A DNA stretch of 62,050 nt from Patescibacteria group bacterium. GTDB lineage: Bacteria; Patescibacteriota; Microgenomatia; Levybacterales; UBA12049. Every line of letters starts with the position of its first letter. The first letter of the stretch is position 1. The stretch is taken from contig JBBTVO010000011.1 in assembly GCA_038063195.1 (NCBI GenBank), forward strand, positions 1 through 62,050, written 5' to 3'. Position numbers and translations under genes: made by a program. Positions 9,678 to 16,536 of this stretch are shown one piece after another. Under the pieces are notes generated by a model. The model worked only from the letters and a program-made list of their open reading frames with translations. It had not been told where the DNA came from and did no database searches.

Positions 9678-10109
9678 GTGAAAATAACCAATAAGAAGGC
9701 ATTTTTAAATTACCAGATTATTGAGAAAATTGAGGCGGGAATAAATCTTTTGGGCTCCGAAGTCAAGGCTGTGCGACAAGGCATGGCTGATCTATCGGGA
9801 AGTTTTGCAAAAGTAATCGGAAGCGAAATTTATCTTATAAATGCGAAAATTTTTCCATACAAATATGCAAGACCCGAAGGCTATGATGAGAAAAGAACCA
9901 GAAAGCTTCTTCTTCACAGAAGTGAAATTATAGCCATAAAATCGCGTATTGATGGCGCCAATCTTTCGGTCATTCCTCTTTCAATGTATACAACCAAAGC
10001 TTTCATAAAGGTGGAGCTTGGGCTTGGAAAAGGTAAAAAAGAATATCAAAAAAAAGAAGCAAAAAAGAAAAAAGATATACAGCGCTCCATCGAACAAGAA
10101 CTCTCCTAG
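9678..10109 (+). CDS. smpB: SsrA-binding protein SmpB
   Basis: 143 aa, GTG start. NKKAFLNYQIIEKIEAGINLLGSEVKAVR and the basic C-terminal tail are typical of SmpB. Confidence 0.9.
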   Translation: MKITNKKAFLNYQIIEKIEAGINLLGSEVKAVRQGMADLSGSFAKVIGSEIYLINAKIFPYKYARPEGYDEKRTRKLLLHRSEIIAIKSRIDGANLSVIPLSMYTTKAFIKVELGLGKGKKEYQKKEAKKKKDIQRSIEQELS

Positions 10110-10158
10110 CTTTCCTTTAAGGAATTTGGAAGTTATCGCAAGGGGCTATTGAAGCAAG
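10105..10158. repeat. degenerate copy of the cassette-junction motif (3' side of a minus-strand cassette gene)
   Basis: cctagctttcctttaaggaatttggaagttatcgcaagg...attgaagcaagattatta aligns with the junction copies at 11390-11457, 12759-12811 and 13300-13365. Overlaps the smpB stop codon. Confidence 0.6.
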
Positions 10159-10162
10159 ATTA

Positions 10163-10837
10163 TTATTTTCCTCTTTGGAGAAAGCCTTTAACCATAGCCA
10201 CAGGACCACGACTATACCGTGACTTGAGTTCTCTCACTTGTTCTCCTGTTAGCCAATTTTCCGTGTATGAATGGACTGAATCTGGCTCAACTGCTCCAGT
10301 TGTTACACCATGCTCATATTCGTAAACTGCGTCTGCAGATAAAGTATCAGGATAAATCCTAACCCATGTTCGCCTTTTTATATCTCTTAGGTCTGTAGTT
10401 TTTAATTCTCCCACCTTTCTGCCTGCTAGCTCTACTGTTTCTGGCTCAGTTGTTTCGATTACTTCAGTTTTATCAGTCCGTAAAGTTCCAATAATTTCAT
10501 CATAATACAATCTCCCAAGGTCGATTCCACCATCAATTCTATTACGAGCTCTGTCTATCGAAGTTGAGTCAACTTCTGCAATTAAGTTTTTCATAAACGA
10601 ATTTAATCTATCCACATCAAACTCAGGATTTTTTGGAGATACGATTATGCTTACAAACTCGGTAAAATATCCACGCTGCGGAGCGTATGAATCGTACTTG
10701 TGTAGTTCTCCAGCAAGATGCACATCAGGATTGGCTTTTAGTAGCTCTCTTACTGTATCAATTTTTGTTCTCGGTCTTTCAGGAGTAGCTGATGCCTCAC
10801 CAGCTCCTCGTGCATTACCAGTTGGAAACTCTGTCAT
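10163..10837 (-). CDS. hypothetical protein, paralogue A of a two-member family in this window
   Basis: Collinear with 13372-14046 (MTEFPTGNARGAGEAS... vs MTEIPTSHSRGAGEVS..., both ending GFLQRGK). The start at 10837 was chosen by alignment to the paralogue and by the promoter 7 nt upstream. Confidence 0.7.
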   Translation of the reverse strand: MTEFPTGNARGAGEASATPERPRTKIDTVRELLKANPDVHLAGELHKYDSYAPQRGYFTEFVSIIVSPKNPEFDVDRLNSFMKNLIAEVDSTSIDRARNRIDGGIDLGRLYYDEIIGTLRTDKTEVIETTEPETVELAGRKVGELKTTDLRDIKRRTWVRIYPDTLSADAVYEYEHGVTTGAVEPDSVHSYTENWLTGEQVRELKSRYSRGPVAMVKGFLQRGK

Positions 10838-10844
10838 GGCAAGA

Positions 10845-10873
10845 AATATACCAGAAAGCAAACCAAAAATCAA
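10845..10873 (-). promoter_or_regulatory. cassette promoter TTGATT-17-TATATT
   Basis: Minus strand reads ...ccacaaacagtcctatagcTTGATT, 17-nt spacer, TATATT, 7 nt, ATG. The upstream motif is shared with two other cassette promoters. Confidence 0.55.
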
Positions 10874-10949
10874 GCTATAGGACTGTTTGTGGTTTACCAC
10901 GCAAAGCTAATTACTGAAAGTAATGAGCGAAGTGTGGACATTTCGGAAA

Positions 10950-11204
10950 TTAAATTAGGCGTTTATTCCTGAAAGCAAATCCAGAACTAGACTTTAGATA
11001 TTTTTCAAACTCTAGAGCTTTCTTTTTAGATTCAAAAGCAGAGTAATAAATTAGCTTAATTGGTCTTAAATTTTTTGTGGAAGCGATTAATCCTTGCGCA
11101 TGAGCTTTGATTCTTTTTTTCAAATCTGTAGAAAACCCATGATAATAAGTCTTATCTTTTAATCTAAGAATATAAACGTAGTACACACATAAATAATACA
11201 ACAA
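10950..11204 (-). CDS. GIY-YIG nuclease domain protein
   Basis: YYVYILRLKDKTYYHGFSTDLKKRIKAHAQG matches the GIY-YIG (URI) motif. The likely true start is the GTG at 11186, giving MYYVYIL. The TTG at 11204 is simply the longest ORF. Confidence 0.75.
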   Translation of the reverse strand: MLYYLCVYYVYILRLKDKTYYHGFSTDLKKRIKAHAQGLIASTKNLRPIKLIYYSAFESKKKALEFEKYLKSSSGFAFRNKRLI

Positions 11205-11327
11205 AAAATGTCCCCCTTCGCATAAAGCTTCGGTAGGGACACTCTTCGTTATTTAGCCAACTTTATTTTTCTTTAGAAGTGTGGCTTGCCACTTCGTAGC
11301 TCATAGGTTCCAACTCATGAGCGAAGA

Positions 11328-11457
11328 GTGGACATTTCAGAAATAAAGTGGAATCAGATTGAAGAGTATGTCTTTAAATGGTATCCCCGCCTTCAGAATA
11401 TGAACCTAGCTTCGCTTTGAGGAATTTATAGAGTTATCACAAGGGAGTGTTGGAACA
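11328..11457. repeat. 130-nt cassette-junction repeat, copy 1
   Basis: gtggacatttcagaaataaagtggaatcagattgaagagtatgtctttaaatggtatccccgccttcagaatatgaacctagcttcgctttgaggaatttatagagttatcacaagg... is near-identical to 13236-13365. Confidence 0.9.
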
Positions 11458-11469
11458 GTATAATTCAGT

Positions 11470-12297
11470 TTAGTCATCAATCATTCTTACATCAACCTTT
11501 TTTAATTTCTTAACTTCCTTCTTAACCTCTTTTATATGCTTTTCAGGAGATAGATCTTCTGGAAGTACTCCTCCGATCTCTTTAATCGTTTGTCGTACCT
11601 TGCCCCCTACCATATTGTGAGTACTTATCGCTGCTTGCTCATCTCTTGTTTCATCTTTTCTTAGTTTTTCGTCTGTCTGTGTTATCCTGAAGAGATTCGC
11701 AGCCAATTCAGTTGAGCCTGCTCTATCTAATAATTCTCCTTTTTTTATTCCCTTTTTTTTCTCAACCTCTTTAAGAGGCATCCCATACAGACCTTTGTAT
11801 CCTGCGTCATTAAAAACTCCGAACATCCTAACTCCTGCTTTTTGTGCCACCCGAGCAAGTTTTTTATTGTGATCAGATACTTCATTGCGTGTAAACAGGC
11901 GCTTTTCGCTTTCTGACAGATTGTCGTAAACCTCTTGTCTTCTTGTTTGAACTGCGAAATATGTCTGAGCAAAAGCAATCTCGGGTTTCTTGGAATCTCC
12001 ATTTTGAGCAATTAAGTAGCATGCATATCTATCTAATTTCCAGTCTTTAAGTTTTCTAATAGTGTTGTATCCTACGGTAACCAATTTACTGACATCAATA
12101 AAATGATTATCCACATACTGTCCACTCTTAATTGAGGCTACTTGTGCTTTTTTTATAACCTCTTCAAAATTTTGCCAATTTGCGTATCCAAGCACTATCA
12201 TCAACTCCCTAGCTGTCCAGTATTCCGTGCCATTTTCGTCTACTTTCTTGAGGTTTTCAAAGTTTTTATTGAGAGTAGCCGGTAAATTATAACTCAT
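11470..12297 (-). CDS. dinD: DNA-damage-inducible protein D (DinD family)
   Basis: Collinear resemblance to E. coli DinD as I recall it (WTARELMIVLGY, RYACYLIAQNGD..KPEIAFAQTYFAVQTRRQE, EKRLFTRNEV, GSTELAANLFRITQT, GGKVRQTI). Start at the internal ATG 12297, which has TTGAGT-17-TATAGT upstream. Confidence 0.8.
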   Translation of the reverse strand: MSYNLPATLNKNFENLKKVDENGTEYWTARELMIVLGYANWQNFEEVIKKAQVASIKSGQYVDNHFIDVSKLVTVGYNTIRKLKDWKLDRYACYLIAQNGDSKKPEIAFAQTYFAVQTRRQEVYDNLSESEKRLFTRNEVSDHNKKLARVAQKAGVRMFGVFNDAGYKGLYGMPLKEVEKKKGIKKGELLDRAGSTELAANLFRITQTDEKLRKDETRDEQAAISTHNMVGGKVRQTIKEIGGVLPEDLSPEKHIKEVKKEVKKLKKVDVRMIDD

Positions 12298-12307
12298 AAG
12301 TTTTACT

Positions 12308-12336
12308 ACTATAGCACCAGAGAAACTACAACTCAA
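12308..12336 (-). promoter_or_regulatory. promoter of dinD (TTGAGT-17-TATAGT)
   Basis: Hexamers and 17-nt spacing read on the minus strand; 10 nt from the -10 element to the ATG. Confidence 0.5.
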
Positions 12337-12436
12337 TAGTTCATCAAAAAAGAAAATGCCTATTACTTTTGCTCCCAGAGTACTTGCAGTTAATGATACT
12401 ATTTGATATACTTCATAACCAAATCTGGCATAGTAT

Positions 12437-12739
12437 ATGGAAGACAACGGAAATTCTATTGGATCTTTTATAGGTGGAGCAATAATCATAGGAATTGTTT
12501 GGTTCTTATTCTCAGGTTCAGGTAAATATGAAGGCGAAAATGCTGAATATTGGTATAACGAATATGACGCAGAAACTGCTGTATCAGAGAGCTATAAGAC
12601 AGCTCTTGAAGAAGCGAACTCAAATATTGAAGAGGCAAATGATATGATTGATAATGCAAAGTCTTATGATGATGCAGAAAGCCTTATAGACGGTGTGAAT
12701 AGTCTTGAAGAAATAGAAACAGTTGCTGAGCCTTATTAA
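12437..12739 (+). CDS. small membrane-anchored acidic protein, unknown function
   Basis: 100 aa. N-terminal TM helix (GGAIIIGIVWFLF) and acidic coiled C-terminus. The only plus-strand ORF in the array. Confidence 0.5.
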   Translation: MEDNGNSIGSFIGGAIIIGIVWFLFSGSGKYEGENAEYWYNEYDAETAVSESYKTALEEANSNIEEANDMIDNAKSYDDAESLIDGVNSLEEIETVAEPY

Positions 12740-12758
12740 ACCTCTCCTTTAGAAACCA

Positions 12759-12811
12759 AACCTAGCTTCGCTTTAAGGAATTTAGAAGAATATCACTAGG
12801 AAGTATTGGAA
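12759..12811. repeat. short copy of the cassette-junction motif
   Basis: aacctagcttcgctttaaggaatttagaagaatatcactaggaagtattggaa matches the 3' half of the 130-nt junction repeat. Confidence 0.8.
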
Positions 12812-12813
12812 TC

Positions 12814-13182
12814 TTATCTTGCCGTAGCTAAAGGATGTGGAAGTCCTAACAAAGACATTCCGATAGGACTTTTTGCAGGAGCAACTGGTTTTACTATTAT
12901 GTTGAGCTCAGGGTCGTTTGGCGTTTCTACACTAAATACAGTTTGCATGTCATCGCTTAATCTGTACTTAATTGTTCCAGACGGTGCCCTACCCTGAGAT
13001 AAAAGACGATTTAGAGCAGCGTCATATCTATTTTGTAAAGATGTCCCAACTCTTTCAGCGGTATCCAGGAAGGATGACTGAGCTTTATCCACAGACTCAA
13101 TTGTTCTGCGTAATTGGTCTGCTTTTTGTTCAAACTTTTCAAATGCTTTATGGTAGTTTTTGTCGCCTTCTGCGGTACTCAT
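12814..13182 (-). CDS. hypothetical protein
   Basis: 122-aa ORF with its own consensus promoter 9 nt upstream. No recognisable motif. Confidence 0.55.
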   Translation of the reverse strand: MSTAEGDKNYHKAFEKFEQKADQLRRTIESVDKAQSSFLDTAERVGTSLQNRYDAALNRLLSQGRAPSGTIKYRLSDDMQTVFSVETPNDPELNIIVKPVAPAKSPIGMSLLGLPHPLATAR

Positions 13183-13191
13183 AATCGTTGA

Positions 13192-13220
13192 ATTTTACTA
13201 CAAAAAGAGGATTTTGTCAA
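13192..13220 (-). promoter_or_regulatory. cassette promoter TTGACA-17-TAAAAT
   Basis: Minus strand reads tccacaaatagtcctatagcTTGACA, 17-nt spacer, TAAAAT, 9 nt, ATG. Confidence 0.65.
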
Positions 13221-13235
13221 GCTATAGGACTATTT

Positions 13236-13365
13236 GTGGACATTTCAGGAATAAAGTGGAATCAGATTGAAGAGTATGTCTTTAAATGGTATCCCCGCCC
13301 TCAGAATATGAACCTAGCTTCGCTTTGAGGAATTTATAGAGTTATCACAAGGAAGTATTGGAACA
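13236..13365. repeat. 130-nt cassette-junction repeat, copy 2
   Basis: Near-identical to 11328-11457, with a handful of substitutions by eye. Confidence 0.9.
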
Positions 13366-13371
13366 AGATTA

Positions 13372-14046
13372 TTATTTGCCTCTTTGAAGAAAACCTATTA
13401 CCTTAGATACAGGACCACGACTATGCTGTGCCTTAAGTTCTCTTATTTGTTCTCCTCTAAGCCAATGTTGTGTATAACCGTGAATCGAATTTGGTTCAAT
13501 AGTTCCATTTATTACCCCTTGCTCATACTCGTATACTTCATGGGCTGAAAGAGTATCGGGATAAACTCTAACCCAGGTTCTTCTTTGTAACGGCTTTATT
13601 TCTTCAGCTTTTGTTTCTCCGACTTTCTTACCAGCTCGCTGTACAGTTTCTAGCTCAGTTGTTTCGATTGTTTCAGTTCTCTCAATTCGTATCAAGCCAA
13701 TAGCTTCATCATAATATAGCTTGCCGAGATGTATTCCTCCATCATTTTCTTCATAGGCACGGTCTTTTGCAGATAAGTCAACTTCAGTAATTAAACCATC
13801 CATATAAACATTTAGCTTATCAACATCAAATTGGGGATTTGTAGGAGCGACAATCATACTTACTGTTTCAGTCCAGTAGCCAACATTGGGAGCATCTGGA
13901 TGAAAATCATGTATTTCTCCCGCAAAATATACATCTTTGTTAGCCTGCAGTTGCTCTCTAACAGCAGCAATTTTTGTTTTTGGTCTCTCAGAGGGAGGCG
14001 ATACTTCACCAGCTCCTCGTGAATGACTGGTTGGAATCTCTGTCAT
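13372..14046 (-). CDS. hypothetical protein, paralogue B
   Basis: Collinear with 10163-10837. Start at the ATG 14046, 8 nt downstream of the -10 element. Confidence 0.7.
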   Translation of the reverse strand: MTEIPTSHSRGAGEVSPPSERPKTKIAAVREQLQANKDVYFAGEIHDFHPDAPNVGYWTETVSMIVAPTNPQFDVDKLNVYMDGLITEVDLSAKDRAYEENDGGIHLGKLYYDEAIGLIRIERTETIETTELETVQRAGKKVGETKAEEIKPLQRRTWVRVYPDTLSAHEVYEYEQGVINGTIEPNSIHGYTQHWLRGEQIRELKAQHSRGPVSKVIGFLQRGK

Positions 14047-14054
14047 ACTTGCGG

Positions 14055-14083
14055 AGTATACCACATACGAGGCTAGCCGTCAA
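14055..14083 (-). promoter_or_regulatory. cassette promoter TTGACG-17-TATACT, immediately downstream of the tmRNA 3' end
   Basis: Minus strand reads ...catctccacaaatagtcctatagcTTGACG, 17-nt spacer, TATACT, 8 nt, ATG. Confidence 0.6.
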
Positions 14084-14099
14084 GCTATAGGACTATTTG

Positions 14100-14457
14100 T
14101 GGAGATGTCGAGTAGTGAGCTCGAGTCCAAGAAGGTAAAGTAAAAACGTCTACAAGCTTATCTGATTTTTAATCTCGCAATATTCTCCCCAACCAGAAGG
14201 AAACAAATATTGCAAAGGTTGAAAGTTCGGATAAAAAGCCAACCAACTTCTTATCTATAGCTCAACTTTATTTATGCCTTATAAAATCTCGTTGAGAAAG
14301 ATTTTACAGACACTTCGACATGCTTAAGCAGCTAGTGCATAAGCGTATCTCGGGCTAGAATCTCTTCCAGCATTTATTTTTTGACTCTGTTTTACGACTG
14401 TCATCAAAGTCGGCTTGCAGTTTTTAAAGTACAATCCTGTCGATGCAATGCATCCCC
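14100..14457 (-). ncRNA. ssrA: tmRNA (SsrA)
   Basis: Minus strand starts GGGGATGCATTGCATCGACAGGATT. The 3' end ...GGACTCGAGCTCACTACTCGACATCTCCA pairs with the 5' end to form a 7-bp acceptor stem containing a G3:U wobble, the alanine identity element. Internal frame GCT GGA AGA GAT TCT AGC CCG AGA TAC GCT TAT GCA CTA GCT GCT TAA (14324-14371) encodes a tag ending YALAA. About 358 nt. CCA is not encoded (CAA follows). Confidence 0.85.
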
Positions 14458-14466
14458 AAGGGCTAG

Positions 14467-14496
14467 ATTATAGCATATTTTGAAGCCAAAAGTCAA
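14467..14496 (-). promoter_or_regulatory. ssrA promoter TTGACT-18-TGcTATAAT
   Basis: Minus strand reads TTGACT, 18-nt spacer, TATAAT preceded by TGc, then 9 nt to the GGGG 5' end of the tmRNA. Confidence 0.7.
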
Positions 14497-14505
14497 TCTA
14501 AGCTG

Positions 14506-14533
14506 TTGACAAATTATTCTTTAGTGCTAAAAT
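14506..14533 (+). promoter_or_regulatory. promoter TTGACA-16-TAAAAT for the 79-aa ORF
   Basis: Consensus hexamers. The ATG at 14540 lies 6 nt after the -10 element with no Shine-Dalgarno sequence, so a leaderless transcript is likely. Confidence 0.6.
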
Positions 14534-14539
14534 GAGCTC

Positions 14540-14779
14540 ATGGAAAGAAGAATAGGTATATCAAAAGGTCCAAACCGAGCAACGCCTGTATACAGACCAG
14601 ATACCCGAACACCAGAGGAATATCAAAGAGACTTAGCTAAACTACAACCAACCTCAGTGGCAAGAGAAGGATCAATAAAGGGCACGAGAATAACCATTGG
14701 GAGATTTGCGAAAAGACTAAATAAACAACGAGGAATTCCACAAGGATTATCCCCGGTTAAACAATTAACCGCGCGCTAA
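14540..14779 (+). CDS. small basic hypothetical protein
   Basis: 79-aa Arg/Lys-rich ORF behind a near-consensus promoter. Its 3' end overlaps the convergent comF by 15 nt. Confidence 0.5.
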   Translation: MERRIGISKGPNRATPVYRPDTRTPEEYQRDLAKLQPTSVAREGSIKGTRITIGRFAKRLNKQRGIPQGLSPVKQLTAR

Positions 14780-15464: not shown

Positions 15465-15549
15465 CGGAGGGTATGGGAGTCGAACCCATTCAGGACTTTC
15501 GCCCTGCAGGTTTAGCAAACCTGTCTCGTGACCGTCTGAGTCACCCTCC
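15465..15549 (-). tRNA. tRNA-Ser(GCU)
   Basis: Minus strand GGAGGGT...CAGGT-TTGCTAA-ACCTG, long variable arm, ATGGG-TTCGACT-CCCAT-ACCCTCC-G. Class II tRNA with anticodon GCT. No encoded CCA. Confidence 0.85.
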
Positions 15550-16536
15550 ATTCCACTTTAACAATCTTGGATTATGAGTCCCTACTACTTCTAGATATCT
15601 CTCGACTTCGTTTGTATTATACAGCCAAACCTTCTTATTTTCTACTTTATCTATTATTTTTGGAGTAAATCCTAATTCTGCTAGTGTATTTTTAACAAAT
15701 AAGAGCAAGGGAGCTGAGCGATTTGAAAATGAGATTTTTTTATATTTATACTCCTTCCCGCCTACTTTATATCTATGAAGAAAAACTCCCCCATCAGTAT
15801 CCATGAGTCCCCTCAAACAAGAGATTCTAAAACTCTTTTCTGCCAATATCCAAATTGGCACATCTACTTGTTGTTTTACTTTGTTGCCAATTTTTAATCC
15901 TATTTGCAAAAGATATCTTACCAGAGATGATCCATTGTAATATAAGGCTACAGCATTACAGTCTTTCTTCTGGAAATGTTTCGGTGGTTCACCGAATAAT
16001 TTTCTCGAAAAACTTGATACAAAATTTATATATTCCCTATCTGCTATAGAATTTAAAGTAACCGTACACTGTCCTAGTGTTAGCCCACCGTCTCCAAGCA
16101 TAATTCCTACATATTCTGCTAGCTCTTTACAGAAGGCGGGTTGATTATACGTCTTAACTCTTGGTATAATTCCGTTTCTTCGAAAATTAGCGAGCGCTTT
16201 TGCTCCACCTTTTCTTCTCCCCTCCTCTGTTGCGGGACTTCCATGTTTTTTAAAACGCTCAATTCCTCCAATTTTGCTTGCCGCCTGCTTAGTTTTTTGC
16301 CACCTCGATATTAAAGATGCTTTTTCCTCCGGTAGAAAAATCTTAAACATCTCACAGAAAAGTTCTGCAGCAAAGAGAGTCATTGTTAGTCTCTCTCTTT
16401 TCCAATCCCTGAAGCTACGCGGATGAATTTTTGCAAATTCTGCCAATCGATCTGTATTTAAACCGCTTACTCTATAAACCGTGTCTAGAAATTCTTTCTG
16501 TTTGTTCGGAAGAAATTTGATTCGTAAGTTTTCCAT
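15541..16536 (-). CDS. LAGLIDADG-family homing-endonuclease-like protein with N-terminal HTH-like region
   Basis: Two LAGLIDADG motifs (YVGIMLGDGGL and LRGLMDTDGGVF). Start set at the ATG 16536 because the longer ORF extension only translates the antisense of tRNA-Ser(UGA). The stop overlaps the tRNA-Ser(GCU) 5' end by 9 nt. Confidence 0.8.
   Translation of the reverse strand: MENLRIKFLPNKQKEFLDTVYRVSGLNTDRLAEFAKIHPRSFRDWKRERLTMTLFAAELFCEMFKIFLPEEKASLISRWQKTKQAASKIGGIERFKKHGSPATEEGRRKGGAKALANFRRNGIIPRVKTYNQPAFCKELAEYVGIMLGDGGLTLGQCTVTLNSIADREYINFVSSFSRKLFGEPPKHFQKKDCNAVALYYNGSSLVRYLLQIGLKIGNKVKQQVDVPIWILAEKSFRISCLRGLMDTDGGVFLHRYKVGGKEYKYKKISFSNRSAPLLLFVKNTLAELGFTPKIIDKVENKKVWLYNTNEVERYLEVVGTHNPRLLKWNGG

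Follow-up and report, generated by a model that had tools for sequence, protein, structure and literature searches.

A tandem array of putative serine-recombinase element remnants at the 3' end of ssrA in a Levybacterial genome

Mobile elements at tmRNA genes

The 3' part of the tmRNA gene (ssrA) is a hot spot for integration, as Williams reportedly described in 2003. Like the classical islands at tmRNA genes, the locus analyzed here, i.e. the interval between smpB and ssrA in a 62-kb stretch of Patescibacterial DNA (the whole of which is called the window), combines the use of this hot spot with regeneration of the target, a displaced fragment that marks the far end and a multi-island array. 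The classical islands, however, employ tyrosine integrases and displace tens of nt of tDNA, whereas here a serine recombinase appears to be involved and almost no tmRNA sequence is displaced.

The closest precedent is formed by the ssrA islands (ssrA-GIs) of Dehalococcoides (McMurdie et al. 2011, PMC3146451), which occur as tandem arrays directly downstream of the single-copy tmRNA gene. Their serine recombinase DsiB (~540 aa) is encoded beside attL, the 3' end of its gene always overlapping attL/ssrA, and many islands in the arrays have no integration module and have been suggested to be cis-mobilisable and to join by accretion; the authors also speculated that a complete recombinase exists only on the circle or where a neighbouring island supplies the 3' fragment (PMC3146451). 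The tandem array at tmRNA, the serine recombinase overlapping attL and the integrase-less islands recur in the system described here, the likeness between DsiB and the present family being drawn at the level of shared domains. The two systems differ in host phylum (Chloroflexota for Dehalococcoides, Patescibacteria here), in the site of insertion (the T-loop, with a 20-bp ssrA direct repeat, versus a core of ~5-8 nt at the very 3' end) and in the module (six genes, a second small recombinase, DsiA, among them, versus elements of 4-11 kb with one large serine recombinase, LSR). Moreover, the detached recombinase tail is here conserved as protein, and circular contigs have it joined to the body, which PMC3146451 did not show.

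CIMEs and site-specific accretion (ICESt1/ICESt3; cited in PMC3146451) provide a further parallel in integrase-less, att-flanked cargo that is stacked beside the site of a related element, although the recombinase class differs and mobilisation in trans is putative here. SCCmec/CcrAB at orfX (rlmH) shares with our locus the large serine recombinases, the 3' end of an essential single-copy gene as target, the tandem composites and the recombinase-less remnants, but its target is protein-coding, where ours is the tmRNA gene, and two recombinases act together. To our knowledge, a recombinase ORF spanning attP is not a described feature of SCCmec. The gene of the SSV1-type archaeal integrases, which are tyrosine recombinases, is split near its middle by integration, and in the cluster G/N mycobacteriophages, likewise a tyrosine-recombinase system, immunity is integration-dependent in that the repressor loses its degradation tag. 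In both cases, as in ours, attP lies inside a reading frame and integration alters a protein of the element, either at its C-terminal end or in its integrity; what would be exchanged here are ~30 C-terminal residues of a serine recombinase, namely for antisense-tmRNA codons.

The smpB-ssrA interval and its cargo

In the window, smpB and the tmRNA gene are convergent and 3987 nt apart, and gene calls, Rfam and Pfam bear out the original prediction that this gap of about 4 kb holds five minus-strand genes and one plus-strand ORF. Mis-assembly is disfavoured because the independent assembly of strain L095 (GCA_038063575.1), which is 98.6% identical, shows the same gene order and repeats. The flanking genes and the cargo are:

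9678..10109, plus: smpB (Pfam SmpB, 3.3e-44), chromosomal flank of the island
10163..10837, minus: A2, 224 aa, paralogue of A1 (61% identity)
10950..11204, minus: stand-alone GIY-YIG nuclease-domain protein, 84 aa (Pfam GIY-YIG, 4.3e-16)
11470..12297, minus: Bro-N/DinD-like gene (Pfam Bro-N; PADLOC PDC-S13, 3.8e-104; phrog_8036)
12437..12739, plus: 100-aa ORF with one hydrophobic segment (ORF list; gene also called in L095)
12814..13182, minus: gene B, 122 aa (ORF list)
13372..14046, minus: A1, 224 aa, paralogue of A2 (AlphaFold model)
14097..14457, minus: ssrA (tmRNA), intact (Rfam, full length, 107 bits)
14467..14496, minus: ssrA promoter-like site (TTGACT, 18-nt spacer, TATAAT), homologous to a site in L013

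The acceptor 3' strand of the tmRNA (...CATCTCCA) ends at 14100 and the encoded tag is AGRDSSPRYAYALAA (...YALAA). The terminal CTCCAC reads on the plus strand as GTGGAG (14099-14104), the putative recombination core.

The A family is very rare, with 15 homologues among 5.8 billion proteins, and its homologues in other genomes do not lie at ssrA. Neither A2 nor gene B matched any family in Pfam, PADLOC or PHROG. The AlphaFold model of A1 is confident (pLDDT 83), and the only fold that it resembles, faintly, is that of small alarmone synthetases and Pol-beta-type nucleotidyltransferases. The longest ORF of the DinD-like gene extends to 12489, a promoter-like site (12336..12308) is suitably placed for the ATG at 12297, and the gene call in L095 is 275 aa. 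This gene matches PDC-S13, a candidate defence family, and the cargo of the window is partly defence-like; related islands carry conflict-type cargo as well (AbiV, Fic/DOC, Bro-N, restriction-modification and TIR).

A set of 80 homologous smpB loci was used for comparison, 68 of which have a tmRNA. In 16 of the 22 relatives with the convergent arrangement, only 9-122 nt lie between the stop codon of smpB and the 3' end of the tmRNA; by comparison with this near-adjacency the 4-kb interval is an insertion. The empty sites anticipated by the original prediction thus exist, and the relatives do not carry the island genes of the window, contrary to what an ancestral locus would entail. For the population itself, neither an excised circle nor an empty-site polymorphism was seen, the contigs of other samples breaking within the repeats.

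The junction repeats and the recombinase of related elements

The interval contains three repeat families, none of which occurs elsewhere in the window. The 24-mer GTCAAGCTATAGGACTATTTGTGG is found at 14079, at 13216 and, with 2 mismatches, at 10869, and the core of a 55-nt motif at 10105, 11405, 12761 and 13313, the chance expectation being 0.00 in both cases; GTGGACATTTC occurs three times (10934, 11328 and 13236). Of the P arms among these repeats, two are complete and three are truncated; in addition there are two M (B') modules and three 24-nt arms:

10105..10160, plus: truncated P-arm remnant, copy 1 of the 55-nt motif (nhmmer match, junction-model positions 87-159)
10845..10892, minus: A2 promoter-like site (-35 TTGATT, 17-nt spacer, -10 TATATT, 7 nt to ATG) with the 24-mer variant (10869-10892), which has CCAC at its end
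10889..10933, minus: M module 1, hairpin-forming trailer, B'-type arm (fold z-score -3.0)
10934..10953, plus: P-arm stub (GTGGACATTTCGGAAATTAA; repeat family D6), truncated by the GIY-YIG gene at its 3' end
11281..11327, minus: M module 2, tmRNA-trailer-type hairpin, B' arm (fold z-score -2.3)
11328..11465, plus: complete P arm, junction copy J3 (repeat, junction-model match, coding test)
12741..12811, plus: truncated P arm, junction copy J2 (repeat family D3, 55-nt motif, nhmmer)
13192..13239, minus: B promoter-like site (TTGACA, 17-nt spacer, TAAAAT, 9 nt to ATG) with the 24-mer (13216-13239)
13236..13373, plus: complete P arm, junction copy J1 (repeat, junction-model match, coding test)
14055..14102, minus: A1 promoter-like site (TTGACG, 17-nt spacer, TATACT, 8 nt to ATG) with the 24-mer (14079-14102)

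The two complete arms are 95% identical across 138 nt. Each consists of an orphan integrase-tail ORF (11328-11420, VDISEIKWNQIEEYVFKWYPRLQNMNLASL and stop, in J3; 13236-13328, VDISGIKWNQIEEYVFKWYPRPQNMNLASL and stop, in J1) and a box 2 (TATCACAAGGGAGTGTTGGAAC at 11435-11456 in J3; 13343-13364 in J1). J2 retains the distal part and box 2, the 100-aa ORF standing in place of the tail-coding part, and the remnant to which the stop codon of smpB is fused has a degenerate box 2 (TATCGCAAGGGGCTATTGAAGC, 10134-10155) and no tail-coding part.

The first 93 nt of the 138-nt junction are plus-strand coding sequence: over 11 junction copies the summed column entropies of the three codon positions are 9.2, 8.9 and 21.6, i.e. 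variation at the third position is 2.4-fold above that at positions 1 and 2. In the junction copies this frame always opens with GTGGAC and never lies within a long ORF. The orphan peptides of the window align without gaps to the tails of database recombinases, and the first 93 nt encode the C-terminal tail of a large serine recombinase (VDIxEISWNxIEEYIFKWYP...). Correspondingly, the junction as a whole is the detached 3' end of an integrase gene (~30 codons) plus a conserved 22-nt box, in other words the P arm of attP/attR. The ~55-nt motif that had been predicted to follow four gene 3' ends is indeed a repeat with four copies, but it is not purely intergenic, as its initial ~18 nt are the final codons and the stop of the tail frame.

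Five relatives (L031, L033, L014, L073 and L055) carry LSR genes that adjoin the tmRNA 3' end and whose last ~15 codons are antisense tmRNA (VEMSS...); the protein of L031 has matches to Pfam Resolvase (83.9 bits) and Recombinase. A homology search with the reconstructed recombinase body plus tail yielded 1944 homologues (E<=1e-20), and among the best 120 of these at least 85 have the VEM... ending and 8 (P0017, P0050, P0076, P0086, P0087, P0088, P0089 and P0118) a tail contiguous with the body in the GTG-GAC frame. The contigs of P0088, P0017 and P0089, on which body and tail are a single ORF, have terminal direct repeats of 127, 55 and 26 nt, respectively, and no tmRNA; such repeats are an assembly signature of circular excised forms and not proof of them. 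From the two forms of the tail, antisense tmRNA in the islands and the fused tail on the circles, we therefore conclude that the integrase gene most plausibly spans attP. Only 5-8 nt (GTGGA[C/G]AT) are common to the tmRNA end and the P arms, so that the crossover point is one we infer rather than map. Separately, L031 contains a single-gene cassette between two P arms without an integrase, and L012 and L015 share one P' arm, which adjoins a P arm in one instance and tmRNA in the other.

In the relatives, attR is formed by a P arm against the native tmRNA terminator/trailer hairpin, of a type present at empty sites. The M modules of the window are of this same type, the counterpart of M module 1 being located directly after tmRNA in L068 and L028 and present in L013 as well. 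M module 2 with the P arm at 11328..11465 is accordingly interpreted as an attR-type junction (P/B'), and the B promoter and 24-mer together with the P arm at 13236..13373 look like a P/P'-type, attP-like junction. The segment 14055..14102 would be the element side (P') of attL.

The upstream element predicted for three genes was recovered by the 24-mer count and a consensus scan, which gave -35/-10 pairs with 17-nt spacers at 14083..14055 (10/12 matches), 13220..13192 (11/12) and 10873..10845 (9/12), each 7-9 nt from an ATG (A1, B and A2). Since the promoter-like sites in the region total 17 against 12.2 +/- 3.4 in shuffled controls, i.e. no excess, the promoters of the cassette genes are plausible but not proven. 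Where intact integrase genes end, the 24-mer finds only a weak likeness: TGTCAAGCTA corresponds to the PIKLI codons, but its distance from the core is not the same. The 24-mer also occurs once at a non-ssrA locus, upstream of a leaderless gene (L092), and for these reasons it may represent a promoter module instead of an att arm.

Alternative origins and proposed history

We consider it about 80% probable that small remnants of integrative elements, of serine-recombinase origin, make up the interval as a tandem array at the extreme ssrA 3' end. In the 10 related loci that have it, the junction family always lies beside ssrA, mostly downstream and antisense as in the window, and overall it is confined to ssrA-adjacent islands or circular recombinase elements, which sets it apart from a genome-wide intergenic repeat. 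The integrase-less island with conflict-type cargo, built by serial integration at the ssrA 3' end, that was originally proposed is thus supported by the empty sites, the distribution of the junction and the gene content of relatives. No recombinase was found in the 4-kb interval and no homologue of the relatives' LSR anywhere in the 62-kb window, so that the link of the window to the LSR rests on the relatives.

The original prediction had left open serial integration or tandem duplication. Expansion of an ancestral locus in place, by tandem duplication or unequal crossing-over and with no site-specific integration, would account for the paralogy of A1 and A2, for the duplication of a whole unit (box 2, gene and 24-mer, ~74% nucleotide identity) and for the missing integrase, and the 95% identity of the junctions is compatible with gene conversion. 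Serial integration is nevertheless favoured because the junctions are that similar while A1 and A2 are only 61% identical; expansion in place is improbable also in view of the near-adjacency of smpB and ssrA in most relatives, the wholly different cargo that the same junction family flanks elsewhere, its presence on circular recombinase elements, the recombinase tail that it encodes and the location of the other A homologues away from ssrA.

The conserved frame might instead be an independent small gene, e.g. for a toxin or regulator of ~30 aa, that travels with the cassettes, given that GTG is a possible start codon and that the frame is intact in both complete copies of the window and in most copies of integrase-less islands. 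This is distinctly unlikely: eight database proteins and three circular contigs have this very peptide as the in-frame C-terminal end of a recombinase of ~530 aa, neither a promoter nor a ribosome-binding site is conserved ahead of the GTG, each copy has a different upstream sequence, and the three-base periodicity can be inherited from functional parent genes.

The junction had also been viewed as a spacer or possible stable RNA, and its intergenic position after gene 3' ends and its high conservation would suit a non-coding RNA, a terminator or a regulatory RNA element. We rejected the spacer and RNA readings, the latter being very improbable, as on either strand motif and junction fold worse than their shuffled controls (z +1.6 and +1.3), Rfam gave no match for the junction even at E<=1, the RNAalifold consensus of 12 diverged copies (-1.9 kcal/mol, one covarying pair) shows no conserved pairing, a scan found no terminator-like site in the junction, and the three-base periodicity of substitutions points to coding constraint on the strand opposite to the cargo genes. 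An integron-like platform, in which a dedicated integrase handles cassettes bounded by an attC-like structured site (the 55-nt motif), fits the single genes in one orientation that are each followed by the same motif and a weak, imperfect dyad symmetry seen by eye, but is largely refuted by the poor folding just described, the absence of RYYYAAC/GTTRRRY ends on direct reading, the partly coding motif, the serine-type rather than IntI-type tyrosine recombinase of the relatives and the promoter of each cassette, integron cassettes being typically promoterless.

Under the preferred reading as remnants of serine-recombinase elements, the parent elements, intact in related Levybacteria, would encode an LSR of ~515-530 aa whose reading frame runs across attP, and recombination would take place in or beside the GTGGA core, the antisense of the terminal TCCAC of the tmRNA. 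On the excised circle the LSR body would continue into ~30 conserved codons (VDIxEISWNxIEEYIFKWYPxLQ...) followed by the 22-nt box, whereas in the integrated state the body beside the tmRNA would read into antisense-tmRNA codons (VEMSS[SN]ELESKK...), the true tail and the box becoming stranded at the far island end as the P arm of attR. Several acquisitions have been stacked at the ssrA end of the window, probably by accretion at the regenerated tmRNA end. Since reuse of attL is not a property of canonical serine integrases, we infer both the order of this stacking and its mechanism; for action on attL/attR, serine integrases also usually require a directionality factor. Later deletion of the recombinase genes would have left single-gene cassettes (A1; B; the 100-aa ORF with the DinD-like gene; GIY-YIG; A2), each perhaps transcribed from a promoter of its own into a near-leaderless mRNA. 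By now the array may be fixed, or mobilisable only by a recombinase in trans, and cis-mobilisable cassettes are possible. The locus is an instructive example of an integrase-less tmRNA-gene island array in the Levybacteria, i.e. within the candidate phyla radiation.

An insertion at the 3' end of the tmRNA gene

In the window, smpB (9678-10109, plus strand) converges with ssrA, the tmRNA gene, across 3987 nt, and the interval between the two holds five minus-strand genes and one plus-strand ORF:

10163-10837, minus strand: A2, 224 aa, 61% identical to A1, no family match
10950-11204, minus strand: GIY-YIG protein, 84 aa
11470-12297, minus strand: Bro-N/DinD-like protein, match to the PADLOC candidate defence family PDC-S13 (3.8e-104)
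12437-12739, plus strand: 100-aa ORF
12814-13182, minus strand: B, 122 aa, no match
13372-14046, minus strand: A1, 224 aa, no family match
14097-14457, minus strand: full-length tmRNA, 107 bits, the sole tmRNA match reported (Rfam)

The same layout is found in an independently assembled strain that is 98.6% identical (L095, GCA_038063575.1). The target RNA gene is itself intact: the acceptor stem of the tmRNA is paired (5' GGGGATG with ...CATCTCC, the discriminator A being position 14100), the tag frame reads AGRDSSPRYAYALAA up to its stop codon and ends in YALAA, and the island begins at the base right after ...CTCCAC, the 3' end of the gene (i.e. the attB region) reading ...CATCTCCAC followed by AAA. 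Since this tmRNA was not called by ARAGORN, Rfam and nhmmer were used instead; that it was missed despite its Rfam score, its normal acceptor stem and its ...YALAA tag suggests that ARAGORN may under-call the tmRNAs of CPR bacteria.

SmpB relatives place the organism in a Levybacteria (Patescibacteria) MAG lineage, and 80 smpB loci of these relatives were searched with the tmRNA of the window using nhmmer. A full-length ssrA was recovered in 68 of them, co-directional with smpB in 46 cases and convergent in 22. The site is empty in 16 of the 22 convergent loci, with 9-122 nt separating the smpB stop from the tmRNA 3' end (in convergent relatives this spacer is often a hairpin alone), and only a few loci have an expanded interval of 2.5-5.6 kb. 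In a close relative with 78% SmpB identity (locus L017) the spacer measures about 10-14 nt. It follows from these short spacers that the six genes in the window are not ancestral to the locus, and the interval is thereby shown to be an insertion at the tmRNA terminus, in support of the original prediction of an ssrA-targeted island. The orientation of ssrA relative to smpB itself flips among Levybacteria (the 46 and 22 loci mentioned). In locus L013, ssrA is bracketed by inverted GTGGA[C/G]AT cores (13455-13475 and 13925-13940), and the entire segment with ssrA and the island, flanked by smpB and the comF-like gene, has opposite orientations in the window and in locus L031; the sequence arrangement suggests recombinase-mediated inversions of the tmRNA gene.

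The content of the island had been described as apparently stress- or conflict-related, and both the PDC-S13 match of the DinD-like protein and the cargo in relatives agree with this. In related tmRNA-end elements most of the cargo consists of conflict systems: AbiV/HEPN, Fic/DOC (twice), a restriction-modification/Vsr/HNH cluster, and a TIR_2 protein that adjoins a trypsin-like protease (L031 14042-14551, L013 12076-13431, L033 11144-12214, L088 2203-5943 and L090 2924-4672). The similarity between the DinD-like gene of the window and the Bro-N gene of the L033 island is not significant. For the A family, no match was found in Pfam, PADLOC, PHROGs or a PDB sequence-profile search. Its AlphaFold model is confident, but the similarity that Foldseek detects to Pol-beta nucleotidyltransferases and small alarmone synthetases is only weak (E about 2e-3, TM 0.27-0.33), and BFVD yielded no match; the modelled fold offers only a hint of a faint nucleotidyltransferase-like resemblance. 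Homologues of A in other genomes occupy contexts unrelated to ssrA (i.e. beside dnaB, Fic/UDG and rpoD); there is no fixed link between the cassette genes as such and ssrA.

A1, B and A2 each have a consensus -35/-10 pair (17-nt spacer) at 7-9 nt before the ATG, and the cassette genes would be transcribed from promoters of their own as near-leaderless mRNAs. The array is flanked by smpB, ssrA, a 79-aa ORF and a gene for a ComF-like phosphoribosyltransferase. The 79-aa ORF (14506-14779, plus strand; basic, no family match) is oriented divergently to the ssrA promoter and resembles the cassette genes in its leaderless layout, with a strong promoter-like site (TTGACA, 16-nt spacer, TAAAAT; 11/12 matches) 6 nt before its ATG. 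In L095 a 331-aa gene with a weak LAGLIDADG_3 match is called between the comF-like gene and tRNA-Ser (window ~15541-16536, minus strand), and L031 has a LAGLIDADG-like ORF in a comparable position.

The junction repeat and the C-terminal tail of a serine recombinase

All the repeats reported in the original prediction are present, and within the 62-kb window they are confined to the smpB-ssrA interval: three copies of the 24-mer, four of the 55-nt motif, three of GTGGACATTTC, and the 138-nt junction pair (11328-11465 and 13236-13373), the members of which are 95% identical. Of the 3' end of the target, only a core GTGGA[C/G]AT (5-8 nt) is repeated, at 13236, 11328 and 10934, and it may mark a distal boundary (attR). 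It is shorter than classical displaced fragments, but in the case of serine recombinases a short core suffices.

A junction family is present in ten other Levybacteria loci (nhmmer), always in the neighbourhood of ssrA and mostly, as in the window, downstream of and antisense to the tmRNA. The aligned copies contain two conserved blocks, namely a coding frame and a 22-nt box (box 2). The first block opens exactly at GTGGAC and is protein-coding on the plus strand of the window, the summed column entropy at codon positions 1, 2 and 3 being 9.2, 8.9 and 21.6 (11 copies). The encoded peptide is V-D-I-x-E-I-S-W-N-x-I-E-E-Y-I-F-K-W-Y-P-x-L-Q (VDISGIKWNQIEEYVFKWYP in the window). In none of these copies does the frame belong to a long ORF, and each copy has a different sequence ahead of GTGGAC. 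The junction is not a diverged copy of the tmRNA 3' domain: past GTGGA[C/G]AT the two lack convincing similarity, and the codon periodicity points to coding constraint instead. Nor is the 130-nt junction a stable RNA: shuffled controls fold better than either of its strands, 12 diverged copies yield no consensus structure or conserved pairing in RNAalifold, and Rfam gives no match to the junctions, neither at the gathering threshold nor at E<=1.

The origin of the orphan frame becomes apparent from the relatives. The array itself lacks an integrase, as had been stated: a recombinase domain is absent from all six ORFs of the interval, and tblastn detected no homologue of the relatives' large serine recombinase (LSR) anywhere in the 62 kb. 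In L031 and L033, the tmRNA 3' end is abutted, on the other strand, by an ORF of 514-526 aa with Resolvase and Recombinase domains, and tblastn places homologues in the matching position in L014, L073 and L055. The L031 protein matches PF00239 (83.9 bits) and PF07508 (23.8 bits), both over the cut-offs, and many homologues match PF13408. The last ~15 codons of the tmRNA-abutting genes are antisense of the tmRNA end, GTG GAG ATG TCG... being translated as VEMSS[SN]ELESKK, and their register is identical to that of the orphan frame GTG GAC ATT...

A search of 5.8 billion proteins with a reconstructed body plus tail as query recovered at least 1944 homologues at E<=1e-20, mostly from Patescibacteria. 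Among the best 120 of these, at least 85 have the integrated form ending in VEM..., a few end in antisense-tRNA-like tails, and in eight the conserved tail is fused in frame to the body (P0017, P0050, P0076, P0086, P0087, P0088, P0089 and P0118). The two orphan peptides of the window align without gaps to the tails of these eight; the P arms of the window (i.e. frame plus box 2) encode the tail of a recombinase. The contigs of P0088, P0017 and P0089 (10.9, 4.2 and 7.5 kb) carry terminal direct repeats of 127, 55 and 26 nt, the usual signature of circularity, and no tmRNA, and are putative circles. The first bases of one contig with this signature are precisely GTGGAC, which is what a branching of the assembly graph at the crossover would produce. 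On these putative circles body and tail are shown to be contiguous, and the integrated copies end in antisense tmRNA. In the AlphaFold model of P0017 the standard LSR layout is seen (long helix E, a beta-rich ribbon region and long paired helices at 346-422), the tail being an alpha-helix (505-523, moderate confidence) behind a flexible linker.

The antisense-tRNA-like tails (P0034, P0066, P0082, P0111, P0126 and P0131; e.g. ..GLEPPTSS and ..GIEPLISS) imply that a design in which attP lies within the ORF may also be in use at tRNA genes. The full-length P0050 has a hybrid tail, VEMSEESWNQIEEYIFRWYP; at least 11 nt (GTGGAGATGTC) are thus common to its attP and the tmRNA end, and the common core is not equally long in all element lineages. 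A phage origin was rejected, since the elements cannot be recognised as phages and their nearest counterparts among IMG/VR recombinases reach only 32-36% identity.

Arms, cassettes and the assembly of the array

Read in the sense of the tmRNA, i.e. along the minus strand of the window, the array runs as follows:

tmRNA...CTCCAC
24-mer and promoter, A1, box 2, tail...GTCCAC
24-mer and promoter, B, box 2, tail lost
100-aa ORF (opposite strand), DinD-like gene, box 2, tail...GTCCAC
M hairpin module
GIY-YIG gene
20-nt stub of tail...GTCCAC
M hairpin module...CCAC
24-mer variant with promoter, A2, and a remnant of box 2 that is fused to the stop codon of smpB

Its att-type junctions are these:

14079-14110: attL-type
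13216-13260: P arm to P' arm
11281-11340 and 10889-10953: P arm to B'-type arm

Box 2 (TAYCACAWG...ATTGGAAC) occurs solely in these P arms; its copies lie at 11435-11456 and 13343-13364, and two more, at 10134-10155 and 12789-12810, are degenerate. The box sits 15-60 nt past the recombinase stop codon in the majority of arms that are fully represented, those of the circular elements L089 and L090 among them. One half of the box, TATCAC, is similar to a half-site of lambdoid operators, and HTH_3 proteins are encoded on the elements that carry the recombinase. The M module (ACTTCGC..hairpin..GCGTGGnnnnCCAC; 10889-10933 and 11281-11327) has a conserved stem potential and a variable loop (z-scores -1.5 to -3.4), and may be a tmRNA 3' trailer, a processing signal or a terminator. 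M-type hairpin trailers lie directly 3' of the tmRNA in L068, L028 and L058, which makes the junctions between P and M attR-type (element arm versus native flank). The tmRNA/24-mer junction is attL-type, and the one at 13216-13260 looks attP-like, as expected within a tandem stack. The 24-mer, placed as the P' arm, had three exact matches in 241 million metagenome records, with only one similar in kind, located away from ssrA. This one (L092 9078-9099, CCACAAATAGTCCTATAGCTTGA, then 17 nt, TATAAT, 8 nt and the ATG of a 197-aa leaderless gene) lies between lon and an M32-type peptidase gene on a soil metagenome contig, with no tmRNA nearby. The 24-mer may be an att arm, a remnant of a recombinase 3' end or, given this non-ssrA locus, simply a promoter module.

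Several arms are stacked in the window, and its cassettes have att-type flanks and no integrase. In L031, an element with a recombinase gene is followed by a single-gene cassette that has a P arm on either side. L012 and L015 have one P' arm in common; in one of the two loci it adjoins a P arm, in the other the tmRNA. The closest relative, L013 (SmpB identity 82%), contains an M module, a 24-mer and two P arms, and its cargo differs from that of the window (a 317-aa acidic protein and a Fic/DOC protein). Serial integration or tandem duplication had been proposed for the array; at the DNA level A1 and A2, flanks included, share about 74% identity versus 95% for the two complete P arms, which fits separate acquisitions of related cassettes with recent arm exchange better than recent local duplication. 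From a comparison of attB, attL, attR and attP, we infer that the LSR catalyses attP x attB recombination at a central dinucleotide, with the crossover probably within GTGGA. The cassettes of the window may derive from recombinase-bearing elements by deletion, or may have been captured by accretion without an integrase, and the array would now be immobile unless a cognate recombinase acts in trans. Circular or alternative junctions are absent from the available assemblies of the source population, from Hainich H52 groundwater, in which other contigs are identical to it and end inside repeats.

The array is not an integron and not an Rfam RNA. As attC sites the repeats fail on their fold z-scores (+1.6 and +1.3), on conserved pairing and on the RYYYAAC...GTTRRRY ends, which are absent, and no IntI tyrosine recombinase is encoded by the genes adjoining the array. 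Islands and arrays at tDNA, ssrA included, were reportedly described by Williams in 2003, and the island of the window lies within this general class (Islander/TIGER). Conceptual relatives are SSV1-type split integrases and integration-dependent immunity. The closest precedent is formed by the ssrA-specific islands of Dehalococcoides, fifteen of which are without an integration module and were considered as cis-mobilisable elements, and for which the authors explicitly suggested, as a speculation, that the recombinase is complete on the circle only (PMC3146451). In Dehalococcoides the crossover is in the T-loop with a 20-bp repeat (PMC3146451), whereas the Levybacteria islands use the extreme 3' end with a 5-8-nt core, and they differ also in module content and host phylum. 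Beyond that precedent, in the Levybacteria case the tail is seen to be conserved and under selective constraint, and to be fused to the body on the putative circles.

A possible state switch, and the bearing of the locus

The placement of attP inside the recombinase ORF could constitute a built-in state switch, coupled in Patescibacteria with a cassette platform at the tmRNA end; we regard this combined reading as unlikely, at a probability of roughly one in five. The excised circle alone would encode the complete enzyme, including the conserved amphipathic helix at its C-terminus (WNxIExYIFKWYP), and the integrated copy would give a variant ending in arbitrary antisense-tmRNA residues. If true, the activity, stability or directionality of a serine integrase would be set by its integration state, without a separate directionality factor. 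As for the platform, integrase-less single genes with leaderless promoters would be captured, stacked and exchanged in trans between P and P' arms, and the whole would be a functional serine-recombinase analogue of the integron for defence genes.

The finding also bears on annotation, in that gene callers will report hundreds of recombinases with spurious C-termini, and orphan 30-codon ORFs beside tmRNA genes are markers of the far ends of islands. The short, well-defined pairs of attB (the tmRNA 3' end) and attP could be mined for new serine-integrase tools. The comparison provides sequence-level support for the speculation, made for Dehalococcoides, of a recombinase gene that is complete only across attP. 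Few mobile elements of the bacteria of the candidate phyla radiation have been described so far, and the locus and its relatives define a large family, with recombinases that mostly end in antisense-tmRNA codons. Its members are small serine-recombinase elements, for which the final bases of the tmRNA gene serve as the site and whose cargo is of the defence or toxin type (AbiV, Fic/DOC, TIR, restriction-modification and DinD-like).
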